A stretch of 64,000 bases of DNA from Escherichia coli (GCF_041248615.1 NZ_CP158426.1); one strand, 5' to 3'. Counted from the stretch's first letter, positions 54,001 to 63,000 are shown. Numbers: made by a program.

Positions 54001-57000
54001 GAGTGAATACACGGAGCAATGTCGCTCGTAACTAAACAGGAGCCGACTTGTTCTGATTGTTGGAAATCTTCTTTGCCCTCCAGTGTGAGGGCTTTTTTAT
54101 ATGCATACCAATAACGCTTCACTCGAGGCGTTTTCGTTATGCAATCAAATATAAGGAGTTACCCATGATGCACTTTCAGCTCGCGGGTAGCGGCGTCATG
54201 TCCGCTTTCTACCCGCACGAATCTGAATTATCACGCAGAGTTAAACAATTAATCAGAGCAGCAAAGAAACAACTGGAGGCGTTATGCGCAATGAAATAGC
54301 CATTAATCACCAGATGCTTCGTGCTGCACAGAACAAAGCAGTAATAGCCAGATTTATTGGTGATTCAAAAATGTGGCTTGAAGCAAATAAAGCGATGAAA
54401 TCAGCTATCAACCTTCCGTGGTATCGCAGGAAATGAGTTTTACAGATAACTGGTCAGACGAAGAATTCATTCGTCAGATGAAAGAAATGCTCAATCAGCA
54501 CAAAGAACAGGAGAAAGATGATGATTCTGACTCTGAATGATAAGCGTGAAATATCGCAAATAATCGCAAGTTTTACTGATGAAGATTACGAACGAATCAA
54601 CAGTGAAGTTGATCGCCTCTGCAAACGTTGCGACCCAATAAGCGAAATGCTTCGCTCATATAAACCAGATGAACACACTAAGGACGCTATCGACTGGCTG
54701 GAAGATGATGACTGTAACTATCAGGAAAAAGCCGCTGAATGGTTCTGGGATGCAATAACCGAAAGAGTTAAGGCTGAATATGCCTTCGCAATATTCAAAC
54801 GCAGACACATTTATGGAGAAGCAGCATGAGCAATATCGTTGAATTCGTTAAACAGCAGGAGCAGTTATTCTGCGGGGCATTGACTGAACAGACGGTGACA
54901 TGGGCTAAGGAAAGCCAGTTTGCAATTCAGTATTTCCAGAAAAATGATTACCTGGCTAAAACAGCACTGGCAAATCCAACCAGCGCACAGAACGCCATCA
55001 TCAATGTTGCGGCGATCGGTATCACCTTAAACCCGGCTAGCAAACTGGCTTATCTGGTTCCGCGCGACGGCATGGTTTGCCTTGATATCAGCTATATGGG
55101 ATTGCTACATATTGCAATGGAGTCTGGTGTTATCTCATGGGGTCAGGCAAAGCTTGTTCATGCTAACGATACTTATGAGTCAAACGGACTTGATAAAGCA
55201 CCAACCCATAAATACAACGCCTTCGGTGATCGTGGCGATATCGTTGGTGTTTACTGCACAGTTAAGACGCCAGCAGGTGATTATCTAACGGAAGAGATGA
55301 GTCTGGCTGAAATTGAGGCTGTAAGGAAAACAAGCAAGGCGGCATTCAGCGATAAAGGACCATGGGTAAATCACTGGAATGAGATGGCGCGAAAGACGGT
55401 CGTAAAGCGTGCAAGCAAGTATTGGCCTAAGGCATCACGTCTTGATAGTGCTATTCACGTACTAAACGAAGAAGAAGGTGTATGGACTGAACCAGTTATG
55501 CCTCACAAATCAGAGGAAGATATCCGCGAAGATGAACGGAAACGCCAGCAGGAAATAACGGATAAAGCACAACTTCTTTGTGATGAAATGGCTCAGGCTG
55601 AAAACATGGATGATTTGAAGAGATATTTTGCAGAAGCATATCGCCTGACATCTGGAATGAAATTGCAGCAGAACATACAAGCCATTTACATAGAATGCAA
55701 AGCGAAACTGGAGGTTGCCAGTGAGCAAACTATATGAAATTGCCAATGAATACGCAAAATTGATGGATTCAGATTTAGAACCAGAGATGATTGCTGACAC
55801 AATAGAAGGCATGGAAGGAGAATTTACCGATAAAATAGAACAACTTCTTTCCGTCATTAAAAATGAATCTGGTTATGCCGAACGCCTCAAGGAAGAGGCA
55901 AAGTCACTAAATGAGCGAGCCGCAGTAATTCAAAACAAGATTGACAGCATCAAATCATATATAGCGTCATCGCTTGAAATGGTTGGAAAGAAAAATATTC
56001 GAGCAGGTATTCACCAGGTAACAATCCGCAAACCGTCAGAAACTGTAGAAATCATCGACTCAAGCGCCCTTCCTCCTGAATACGTTGAGTTCGAAACGAC
56101 AATTAAAGCCGACAAACTGGCAATCAAACACCAACTAAAAGCAGGAATAAATATCCCCGGTGCTCAACTCAAAGTTGGAAAACCTTCACTTCTTATCAAA
56201 TAACGGTATCGCCTATGAAAAAGACTCCATGGGAGAAATGGGAAGTCGATTTCTTGCGCGAGGTAGCGGCGACAATGCCAGTTGAAGTTATCGCAGAAAA
56301 ACTGGAAAGGACTGAAAAAGCAGTAATGGCGAAAGCAACAAGGATTGGCGCTGACATTGTTAGCCGACTTCGTGGAAGACGATGGACAAGAGCCGAAGTA
56401 TCACTTTTCGGTAAGTTCTCAGCAGAAGAAATAGCAATTGCAACCTGCCGCTCAATTTATTCAGTAAGAGCTATGCGATACAAGCTAAAAAAACTCGATG
56501 AAGAAAGAGCAGGCATACGAATAAATTAACATGGAGTAATTAACAATGAAGCTAAACATCGACCTCGGAAAATACGTTATTACCGGAACCAAACACGACC
56601 TGATTCTTAGTGAAAGAGGAATTATCAAAGAAGGCGAGAATGCAGGGAAAGAAACACTAAGCCGTATCGGTTATTACAGCAAGTTTGAGCATCTGGTTAA
56701 AGAGTTATGCAACCGTGAAATCCTGTTATCTCAGGCGCAGACGCTACAGGATATTCAGCAGCATATCGAGACTTTAGGTATGTCACTTAGCATGGCTATT
56801 GACCAGTTAGTGGAGAGTAAATCATGAGAGGACTTGCATACAATCCCGGAATTCTTCCGGCAGAAATGATTATTCGCCAACGCGTAAAGCCAATGCCATC
56901 GAGAGAGGAATTGCTTAAGAGAAATTCTTTTCCATCAGTGAATCAAAACAAATATCTGAATGCGATGTGGCGGAGTGGGAAGAAATGAAACAAATGTCAC

Positions 57001-60000: not shown

Positions 60001-63000
60001 GATACGCTGGAAAATTGCGATGATGACCGTATTGAGGCTGTTAAGGCTGTTTTGCGTAGACTGGCTGGCAACTATCCGGTAACTCCGGATAGTTGGATAA
60101 GCTGTAGTGAGCGAATGCCCGCTCAAGATGATTGGATTTTAATTTATTCAAAGCACGGCGAGTATATGGCAGGACAGGTACAAGGGGAATACGTGGAGTT
60201 GAGCGACGGCACTTTATCGTGGTTAGGGAACGCCTTGTACTGGATGCCTCTACCAGAACCGCCGAAGGAGGTTAACCGTGGCTAACCTGCAACTTGCCGT
60301 CAAAGGTGAATACTTCGATGCCATGATTCGCGGAGAGAAAACGGAAGAGTATCGCCTGTGTAATGACTACTGGAAAAAGCGCCTCGTTAACCGTAAGCAT
60401 GACCGCCTGATTATCACAAAGGGATATCCGAAGCGCGACGATTCCAGCCGCAGAGTTGATGTTCCGTATGACGGATATGAAGTGAAGACAATCACACATC
60501 CGCACTTCGGTGATAAACCGGTAAAGGTATACGCGATAAAGGTAAATATCGGCACTGAATAACAATCCGCACAACACAAGGTCAAGAATGTTCAGAGTGA
60601 TTTACCCTAACACCTGGTACGTCGACCACCACGGCACTCCCTGCAAAATCCTGCGTTCCACTCACAACAAAGCTCACTACATCCGAAAAGGCAGAACATG
60701 TATCGCCAGCATGTTCCGCTTTAATCATGACTTTGAACCTGTGAATAAAGCTGACGCAGATCGGATAGCTGAAGAGATCGAAACAGCAGAACACATTAAG
60801 AAGTTACGTGCCATACGCAGGAAATAGAAAAATTGATAAATTCAATACTGCATTTCTCAGCATTAAATTTATCTCTATGACCAGTCAAGAGATGTACCTG
60901 CCATGAGCTTAATATCATGTCAGATATATCGGTCACAAACTCCCTCAGCAGCTAAGAGGAGGACAAATGTCTCGACTAATCACTTTACAGGACTGGGCTA
61001 AAGAAGAATTTGGGGACTTAGCACCAAGTGAGCGAGTTCTGAAAAAATACGCGCAAGGGAAAATGATGGCCCCACCCGCTATAAAAGTTGGTCGCTACTG
61101 GATGATTGACCGAAATTCCCGTTTTGTAGGAACGCTTGCAGAACCGCAACTCCCAATAAACGCAAACCCAAAACTCCAACGGATAATCGCTGATGGCTGC
61201 TAGACCCCGATCTCACAAAATCTCTATACCCAATTTATATTGCAAATTAGATAAGCGAACCGGAAAGGTATATTGGCAATACAAACATCCACTATCCGGT
61301 CGTTTTCATAGCTTAGGAACTGATGAGAATGAAGCAAAACAAGTTGCTACTGAAGCAAATACCATTATTGCTGAACAACGTACCCGACAAATATTAAGCG
61401 TCAATGAGCGTCTAGAAAGAATGAAAGGCAGGCGCTCAGACATTACGGTGACAGAATGGCTTGATAAATATATTTCTATCCAGGAGGACAGGCTGCAACA
61501 TAATGAACTAAGACCCAACTCCTATCGGCAAAAAGGCAAACCCATTCGTCTTTTCCGTGAGCATTGTGGAATGCAACACCTCAAGGATATTACCGCACTT
61601 GATATTGCCGAAATAATTGATGCTGTAAAGGCTGAAGGTCATAACAGGATGGCGCAAGTCGTGAGAATGGTGTTGATCGACGTCTTCAAAGAAGCACAAC
61701 ACGCAGGACATGTTCCGCCAGGATTTAACCCAGCGCAGGCAACAAAACAACCGCGAAATCGAGTAAACCGCCAAAGATTATCACTGCCCGAATGGCAGGC
61801 AATATTTGACAGCGTAAGCAGACGGCAGCCCTATTTAAAATGCGGGATGCTACTTGCTCTTGTCACTGGACAACGTTTAGGCGATATCTGCAATTTGAAA
61901 TTCTCTGATATCTGGGACGACATGTTGCACATTACTCAGGAAAAAACCGGTTCAAAACTTGCTATTCCGCTTAACCTGAAATGCGATGCTCTGAATATTA
62001 CCCTTCGTGAAGTTATATCTCAGTGCAGGGATGCTGTTGTTAGTAAATATCTGGTCCATTACCGTCACACTACCTCTCAAGCAAACAGAGGAGACCAGGT
62101 GTCTGCAAATACTCTTACAACGGCTTTTAAAAAGGCCAGGGAAAAATGTGGCATAAAATGGGAGCCAGGAACTGCGCCCACATTTCATGAGCAGCGATCT
62201 CTGTCAGAACGGTTATATCGGGAACAGGGTCTGGATACGCAAAAGTTGTTAGGTCATAAATCCAGAAAAATGACCGACCGATACAATGATGATCGTGGTA
62301 AAGACTGGATTATCGTAGATATCAAAACAGCATAGAAAATAGCCAGTTTTGGGGAAGGGTTTTGGGGAAAGTTTTGGGGAAGATTTTACATCATCATAAA
62401 ACAACGGGCGTGTTATACGCCCGTTACAATATTTAACACATGTAGTGATTACATATTCTTGATGATCGCATCACCAAACTCTGAACATTTCAGCAGCTTA
62501 GCGCCTTCCATCAGACGTTCGAAGTCATAGGTTACGGTCTTCGCATTGATTGCGCCTTCCATACCTTTAACAATCAGGTCTGCGGCTTCAGTCCAGCCCA
62601 TATGGCGCAGCATCATCTCAGCGGAGAGAATAATAGAGCCAGGGTTAACTTTGTCCTGACCGGCATATTTCGGCGCAGTACCGTGGGTGGCTTCAAACAG
62701 GGCGCATTCGTCACCGATGTTTGCGCCTGGGGCGATACCGATACCGCCGACCTGTGCAGCCAGAGCGTCAGAAATGTAGTCACCGTTCAGGTTCATACAG
62801 GCGATAACATCATATTCAGCCGGACGCAGCAGGATCTGTTGCAGGAATGCATCAGCAATCACATCTTTAATGACGATCTCTTTGCCGGTATTCGGGTTTT
62901 TAACTTTCAGCCACGGGCCGCCGTCGATCAGTTCACCGCCAAACTCTTCACGCGCCAGCTGGTAGCCCCAGTCTTTAAACGCGCCTTCGGTGAACTTCAT

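Follow-up and report, generated by a model that had tools for sequence, protein, structure and literature searches.

Gene content and setting of the block

The window analysed here is a stretch of 64,000 nucleotides (nt) of Escherichia coli DNA (GCF_041248615.1, NZ_CP158426.1), and the element in question is a block of small open reading frames (ORFs) at positions 56215-60827, in the early-left region of a lambdoid prophage. An earlier note, made from the sequence alone, had placed about ten small uncharacterised ORFs between recT and xis; its coordinates proved exact, running from the ATG of the first ORF at 56215 to the stop of the last at 60827, and both the small-ORF block and the interval stand, whereas the ORFs number eleven, all on the plus strand (O1 to O11), and the immediate left neighbour is gp157 rather than recT. 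We consider it probable that the block is an ordinary part of the prophage's early-left (pL) operon, of the kind called the ea region in phage P22 and the exo-xis region in lambda, which encodes dispensable early proteins acting on the phage decision and on the host. The eleven ORFs (lengths in amino acids, aa; isoelectric point, pI) are:

56215-56529, plus: O1, 104 aa, basic (pI 10), putative DNA-binding protein with two tandem Myb/SANT/GcrA-like helix-turn-helix (HTH) repeats
56546-56827, plus: O2, 93 aa, DUF5405, optionally present between O1 and O3 (Pfam 1.1e-5, 26.2 > 21.6)
56824-56988, plus: O3, 54 aa, DUF2737, ortholog of P22 orf56 (Pfam DUF2737 2.6e-31)
56985-57416, plus: O4, 143 aa, EaE-like modular protein of the Ea22 supercluster (phrog_614, 8.2e-51)
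57413-57958, plus: O5, 181 aa, acidic (pI 4.6), Phage_phiTE_072 family (PF26211)
57955-58254, plus: O6, 99 aa, DUF7739 (Pfam 1.2e-20; phrog_1239, 6.6e-55)
58256-58888, plus: O7, 210 aa, Ead/Ea22 family (Pfam PF13935, 9.2e-38, 130.4 bits against a cutoff of 27, aa 2-124)
58890-59087, plus: O8, 65 aa, acidic (pI 4.35) zinc ribbon, CPKC ... CCPEC (phrog_4173, 1.3e-28)
59098-60285, plus: O9, 395 aa, EaA-like modular protein with C-terminal DUF551 (Pfam PF04448, 1.1e-10, 42.6 bits vs 22, aa 332-390)
60278-60562, plus: O10, 94 aa, basic, ASCH-like, starting with GTG and sharing 8 nt with O9 (phrog_625, 5.3e-49)
60588-60827, plus: O11, 79 aa, basic, DUF4222 (Pfam PF13973, 3.7e-17, 62 bits vs 27)

The tight packing and frequent overlaps described earlier are borne out: five junctions overlap by 4-8 nt (ATGA or GTGA type), two are separated by a single nt and the others by 10, 16 and 25 nt, so that non-coding sequence amounts to 53 of 4613 nt and about 99% of the block is coding. 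These ORFs lie far beyond chance expectation, because every one of the eleven matches a PHROG family (E 1e-23 to 1e-88) and seven match Pfam above the gathering score, namely DUF5405, DUF2737, DUF7739, Ead/Ea22, DUF551, DUF4222 and phiTE_072, the last assignment having been precomputed on homologs of O5, with PF26211 lying outside the Pfam copy that was scanned. The statement that the DUF551 protein and a zinc-ribbon protein alone were even loosely classifiable thus gives way to seven Pfam members and eleven PHROG members, among them an Ea22-like protein (O7), an orf56 counterpart (O3) and a predicted Myb/GcrA-like HTH protein (O1). In the RefSeq record NZ_LT599825.1 (E. coli NRZ14408), which is 100% identical to the window, ten of the eleven are annotated as coding sequences (CDS). 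The genes that frame the block, several of them named by the prokaryotic genome annotation pipeline (PGAP), are:

53738-53938, same strand as the block: ral, the one recognisable anti-restriction gene, upstream of the block
54826-55737, plus: recT (Pfam RecT 2.9e-32; PGAP)
55715-56203, plus: gp157, Siphovirus Gp157 family, the left boundary (Pfam Sipho_Gp157 1.1e-37; PGAP)
60967-61203, plus: xis, excisionase gene, the right boundary (Pfam Exc 6.7e-6; PGAP)
61193-62335, plus: int, integrase gene (PGAP annotation)
62449-63699, minus: icd, beside int

Read along the plus strand, a gene for a cI-like repressor is followed by two small genes, N, sieB (minus strand), ral, kil, a 103-aa ORF, recT, gp157, the block, xis, int and icd (minus strand); the block shares its strand with N, ral and kil and sits between the recombination module and xis-int. 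This gene order makes the block the distal segment of a lambdoid prophage's early-left operon, the prophage being inserted at icd; the earlier description of an early-left accessory segment is in keeping with this. Promoter-like sites within the block are rarer than in shuffled sequence (9 vs 18.4), the only terminator-like hairpins on its plus strand are two weak ones of 5 bp, and an Rfam scan of positions 50000-64000 at E<=0.1 returned no RNA family; the scarcity of promoters and the weakness of the hairpins would fit read-through transcription from pL.

A conserved left section and a mosaic hotspot

When the ORFs of the block were mapped onto 80 related IMG/VR loci anchored on gp157 (96-99% identity), they fell into two sections of very different behaviour. 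O1, at 95-100% identity, is present in 79 of the 80 loci and O3 in 78-79, with O2 found between them in 41/82 loci; moreover, a 59%-identical homolog of O1 occurs in RecT-YqaJ-O1-DUF2737-...-Ea22 arrays of unrelated metagenomic phages, from which it follows that the pairing of O1 with O3 persists even where the recombination partner has changed. O1-O3 therefore form a conserved section that accompanies the recombination module, and the view of the whole block as variable cargo does not hold for its left third.

The remaining eight genes are a hypervariable hotspot of shuffled cassettes, dominated by modular proteins of the Ea22/EaE/EaA kind. Homologs of O4 in the relatives reach merely 41-57% identity, O5 and O8 are each found in 3 of the 80 loci, O6 in 11 and O10 in about 24, usually directly after a DUF551 gene, while O9 is represented by fragments only. 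Of 5426 complete E. coli genomes, 4206 contain pieces of the block and one, the source genome, contains all of it; likewise, pieces are found in 593 phage records, none of which reaches 80% coverage. A census of what occupies the hotspot in the relatives, based on 44 representatives of other gene clusters, returned two Lar_restr_allev clusters, an N6_N4_Mtase, a Methyltransf_11 and a Mom-family protein, together with a dATP/dGTP pyrophosphohydrolase, HNH_3, AntA/P22_AR_C, Lambda_ea8_5, DUF4752, DUF7446 and LprI.

Single-linkage clustering joins the Ea22/EaE/EaA-like proteins of these loci into one supercluster (n=145, 125-401 aa, 0-4 slots per locus), whose members share a few N-terminal leaders and exchange their C-terminal domains. 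Their C-terminal tails (loci L002-L083) are of three conserved types, IRIKGE/D, RKGGNQ and (K/Q)EVNRG, and the corresponding sites in the window (57395-57416, 58868-58892 and 60262-60285) each overlap the AAGGAG Shine-Dalgarno sequence of the next gene. The RKGGNQ tail, which is that of O4, is common to about 30 proteins of the supercluster, and its codons hold AAAGGAGG, the ribosome-binding site (RBS) of O5. Such RBS-bearing tails may double as points of crossover and module exchange, a role that we infer. O4 itself, whose start is taken as the ATG at 56985 as in PGAP (a GTG at 56967 is an alternative), also matches phrog_368 and phrog_14548, both of which are matched by O7 too.

In O7, the conserved Ea22 N-terminus and coiled coil are followed by a different C-terminal domain (CTD, about aa 127-210). 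The alignment with lambda Ea22 (61% identity over O7 aa 1-138, lambda residues 1-115) stops at residue 138, the CTD is unrelated to the solved CTD of lambda Ea22, and a phmmer search of O7 against all PDB chains gave SRP54 at E 0.05 and no Ea22 chain; taken together, these results make O7 an Ea22 variant with another CTD. The latter (58634-58885, 84 aa) opens with VVVSGFTGCGKSAIAGE and contains the Walker A pattern GxxxxGK[ST] as GFTGCGKS at about aa 140-147. All matches of the CTD to P-loop families are sub-threshold (APS_kinase 16 bits against a cutoff of 21.1, ParA 12.8, AAA_16 13.9) and span at most the first 40 residues, and the domain is too short for a full nucleoside triphosphatase, which would have a Walker B motif and about 150 aa or more; the P-loop idea stays at the level of a motif. 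In the best 120 of 465 Ea22-like proteins, conservation of the CTD module is 96% or higher, and with the listed homologs so alike the alignment is too shallow for useful modelling. One source calls a homolog of this CTD an 'ATP-binding protein'.

O9 is a very acidic protein (net charge -29) composed of three PHROG modules, phrog_5117 (aa 1-123), phrog_14306 (aa 111-261) and phrog_60 (aa 303-394). At this place the PGAP annotation of NZ_LT599825.1 has only a pseudogene fragment, 'partial in the middle of a contig' (59446-59706), and a 56-aa CDS (60115-60285), which could be taken to mean that part of the block, O9 above all, is a decaying remnant left by recombination. The patchwork of modules and an AlphaFold2 model of mostly low confidence could be read in the same way. 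The frame is nevertheless intact over 395 codons, more than 100 full-length homologs (381-433 aa, 70-97% identity, mostly named DUF551 proteins) are found in many genomes, and an RBS-like AAGGAGG and the overlapping start of O10 are kept at its 3' end. Decay is accordingly a very improbable account, which the full-length homologs have largely refuted. O9 is a real and intact gene, and it is the RefSeq annotation that is at fault.

The assignment of O1 was reached indirectly. Besides phrog_323 ('transcriptional regulator, D5-like', E 2.8e-20), direct comparison with the Myb and GcrA models of Pfam gave no match, the only signal being HTH_12, whose 20.7 bits fall short of the 21.4-bit cutoff. 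Its two halves (about residues 2-46 and 47-96), on the other hand, both match the unit that is repeated in long multi-repeat proteins, including P0250 (1.2e-23), P0253 and P0257, and multi-repeat homologs of this kind score 2e-41 with Myb_DNA-binding, 1e-39 with Myb_DNA-bind_6 and 1e-9 with GcrA. O1, for which 532 representative homologs were found, is on these grounds predicted to be a basic, DNA-binding, two-repeat HTH protein of the Myb/GcrA type; BLASTP of one half against the other detects no internal repeat, which is seen only by way of the multi-repeat homologs. In one relative (L091:223-2576), a longer homolog of O1 (153 aa, 50% identical) stands directly upstream of a gene for a 631-aa fused Dcm-type/Dam methylase, and this neighbourhood hints at a link between the HTH family of O1 and DNA methylation in some phages.

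Likeness to known phage regions and possible functions

The closest known counterpart of the block is the ea region of P22 (orf56, eaE, orf45, eaF, eaD, eaI, eaA, eaG, eaC), which lies between abc2 and xis. Both regions follow a recombination or anti-RecBCD module and precede xis-int in the same orientation and gene order, and BLASTP of the eleven ORFs against the P22 ea proteins shows the block to be colinear with orf56-eaE-eaD-eaA. O3 is 75% identical to orf56 (E 3e-30), both genes standing directly after the recombination genes (recombination/abc in P22); O4 is 34% identical to EaE over 100 aa (E 2e-8), O7 is 75% identical to EaD over 44 aa (E 3e-17), and the N- and C-terminal ends of O9 are 32-34% identical to those of EaA (E 5e-10). 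The two differ in that the recombination module of P22 is Erf-Abc1-Abc2 and the present one RecT-Gp157, that O1, O2, O5, O6, O8, O10 and O11 are without a P22 counterpart, and that eaC, eaF, eaG and eaI of P22 are without one in the block.

The exo-xis region found in lambda and the Shiga toxin (Stx) phages (orf60a, orf63, orf61, orf73, ea22, ea8.5) occupies the same place, from the recombination genes to xis. Apart from the Ea22 part of O7, the likeness to lambda shows in an ea8.5-related domain in the same hotspot of relatives and in the mosaic make-up published for Ea22, which includes a variant bearing DUF551 and fits the domain shuffling seen here (PMC10834534). Among the eleven ORFs, by contrast, BLASTP at E<=0.01 found no match to orf60a, orf63, orf61 or ea8.5, and the Pfam families DUF1317, DUF1382 and Lambda_ea8_5 found none either; with the cassette of orf60a-orf63-orf61 and ea8.5 absent, the block is of the P22 rather than the lambda type. 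By its sequence, then, the block would be a P22-type ea region, the same thing as lambda's exo-xis region. The earlier comparison with the lambda ea/b2 region is upheld as regards ea but not as regards b2, which lies across att from int and hence is not equivalent to the block.

What such genes do is known in part from experiment. The exo-xis genes are early and non-essential, and they shift lysogenisation and induction (PMC7093339, PMC3824215, PMC10834534); Ea22 in particular is pro-lysogenic (PMC7093339), and it forms tetramers and is mosaic, its CTDs being variable (PMC7093339, PMC3824215, PMC10834534). Tuning of the choice between lysis and lysogeny has been demonstrated for Ea22 of lambda and the Stx phages and for the neighbours of Ea22 in exo-xis (PMC7093339, PMC3824215, PMC10834534). 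The block may be pictured on this model as a translationally coupled string of eleven genes read one way, downstream of N, ral, kil and recT-gp157. O1-O3 would form the conserved left part that moves with the recombination module, and in O4-O11 a shared N-terminal leader or coiled coil would be joined to swappable C-terminal domains, the possible crossover points being the short conserved tails (RKGGNQ, IRIKGE/D, KEVNRG), whose codons supply the following gene with its Shine-Dalgarno sequence. After infection or induction, these early and dispensable proteins would bind host or phage partners and so tune both the lysis-lysogeny decision and host physiology.

Several points weigh against this picture. 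The conserved lambda cassette orf60a-orf63-orf61-(orf73)-ea8.5 is missing from the block; co-transcription from pL is deduced from gene order and simple pattern scans; the experimental support concerns Ea22 only, and the CTD of O7 sets it apart from lambda Ea22; functions beyond Ea22-type tuning of lysogeny are ones that we infer. The tails that contain Shine-Dalgarno sequences are recombination joints by conjecture, and the linkage of O1 and O3 to the recombination module could in part come from the genes lying close together rather than from a function in common.

The earlier note had suggested that the block carries anti-restriction or anti-defence genes, and in an extended form this would make it an anti-defence island, in which at least one of the variable genes O4-O11, especially the acidic O5, O8 and O9, is a direct inhibitor of a host immune system (restriction-modification, retrons or CBASS, among others) early after DNA entry. 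For the relatives, part of the suggestion holds: the hotspot does carry anti-restriction cargo, since the same slots contain Lar-family genes (Pfam 1.4e-9 and 3.6e-9, one of them at L003:3550-3786), N6_N4 and Methyltransf_11 methylases and a Mom-family protein. For the eleven ORFs themselves it found no counterpart among known families: scans with Pfam, NCBIfam and PHROG returned no anti-restriction or anti-defence family, Lar and Ral included, and the PADLOC defence models gave no match to any of them at E<=0.01. The genes in question are small and hypervariable and would be dispensable and expressed early, ral lies upstream in the same operon, and screens of phage accessory genes find counter-defence functions among genes of this kind (10.1101/2023.04.06.535777). 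The acidity of O9, O5 and O8 resembles that of many DNA mimics, with which it is compatible without being evidence for mimicry.

Against these considerations stand not only the negative scans but also the structural results and the characterised relatives. The structure-based check that had been proposed was run on O5 and O9: O5, for which the model is confident, has no solved structure as a neighbour, and its neighbours in BFVD are unnamed phage proteins only, while the model of O9 (pLDDT, the predicted local distance difference test, 46.6; 60-80 in the beta-rich DUF551 part) is too poor for a fold search. Among characterised relatives, Ea22 points to control of lysogeny and RgdR to host transcription. 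The literature searched links none of these DUFs to defence; it yielded no papers on DUF2737, DUF5405, DUF7739, DUF4752 or PF26211/phiTE_072 and for DUF4222 only RgdR, and the accessory-gene screens consulted make no mention of DUF2737, DUF5405, DUF7739, DUF4752, PF26211 or DUF4222. Direct inhibition of host immunity by a gene of this block is for these reasons possible but doubtful.

Related to it is a more speculative proposal, to which we give rather little credence, namely that the supercluster represented by O4, O7 and O9 is a phage 'polymorphic effector' system with at least one new defence inhibitor among its cargo domains or neighbours. A conserved N-terminal oligomerisation leader could here display interchangeable C-terminal domains that bind different targets and are swapped at the RBS-containing junctions, and candidates for the inhibitor could be the truncated P-loop-like CTD of O7, the acidic O9, the phiTE_072 protein O5 and the zinc ribbon O8.

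The likeness of O8 to Lar of the Rac prophage is that both are small zinc-ribbon proteins. No ORF of the block matches the Lar or Ral models of Pfam, and an identification of O8 as a Lar homolog was rejected, BLASTP giving E 0.036 (24 aa, against the Lar of relative L003) and 32; against the Zn-ribbon, Rad50-hook and YnfU families every match of O8 is sub-threshold.

A further explanation holds that O11, O9 and O1 are prophage regulators of host genes, which alter virulence or stress responses of the lysogen. O11 belongs to the DUF4222 family of RgdR, which is encoded in prophage island OI-51 of enterohaemorrhagic E. coli (EHEC) O157 and activates the cascade of the locus of enterocyte effacement and its type III secretion system (PMC10877973); both proteins are similarly small and both genes stand beside an integration module, the likeness being one of family and description only. 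YfdS, the DUF551 protein of prophage CPS-53, alters sensitivity to oxidative stress (as cited in PMC10834534), and O1 is a predicted DNA-binding protein. Lysogenic conversion of this kind is clearly unlikely, given that the genes lie inside the repressed pL operon with no excess of promoter-like sites and that the RGD tripeptide conserved in the RgdR of EHEC is absent from O11.

With the P22-type ea segment as the preferred reading, the region is a textbook mosaic accessory region, in which every gene already belongs to a catalogued and mostly uncharacterised family. The comparison is of use in that it separates a conserved, RecT-linked trio from eight cargo genes, thereby narrowing screens for anti-defence or lysogeny-control functions, and in that it fills a gap in the RefSeq annotation with the 395-aa DUF551 gene. 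Should a cargo gene prove to inhibit defence, or should O1-O3 assist recombination by RecT, a function would be assigned to families that thousands of enterobacterial prophages carry.

Other cargo genes and neighbouring features

Of the smaller cargo genes, O10 scores 15.5 bits with the Pfam ASCH model PF04266 (cutoff 21.2, aa 6-48) and bears the PGAP name 'ASCH domain-containing' (WP_001304460.1). PDB sequence searches with O1, O5, O7 and O10 gave noise or the sub-threshold SRP54 match only. The family of O2 in PHROG is phrog_154 (E 1.6e-31). Members of the O5 family also occur in the exo-xis regions of Klebsiella prophages. Three viral loci and 60 of 5426 E. coli genomes have O5 and O6 side by side; that they form an obligate pair was rejected, for an Ea22 gene lies between them in L086 and the Klebsiella prophages examined lack O6. 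Among the E. coli matches to O5-O6, 106 of 499 are on plasmids, and contigs of about 90-110 kb carry many full-length homologs of O9 and O5, which suggests that ea-type cassettes are common to phage-plasmids and integrated lambdoid prophages.

To the right of the block, the 139 nt between O11 and xis (60828-60966) are the only sizeable non-coding stretch, and they contain an AT-rich, imperfect, 16-bp inverted repeat at 60835-60873, GATAAATTCAATACTG...CAGCATTAAATTTATC, which could bind a protein or form a hairpin on the minus strand.

To the left, the recombination module (54518-56203) consists of RecT and Gp157 with no recognisable exonuclease, and the 103-aa ORF upstream of recT (54518-54829) matches no family. 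The corresponding modules of relatives (loci L002, L092-L094 and L087-L090) are of the RecT-HNH-Gp157 or RecT-YqaJ type; phage Louie has the order RecT-HNH-Gp157, and its Gp157 is annotated as 'Mu Gam-like'.

Farther upstream, two plus-strand genes (50911-51468 and 51465-52217) lie between the gene for the cI-like repressor and N, the position of rexAB in lambda. The product of the second, a 250-aa DUF1828 protein, is matched from end to end by PDC-M24B, a candidate-defence model of PADLOC (E 4.7e-10), and that of the first is matched weakly by PDC-M24A (E 4.8e-4); the pair is probably a candidate defence system encoded by the prophage.

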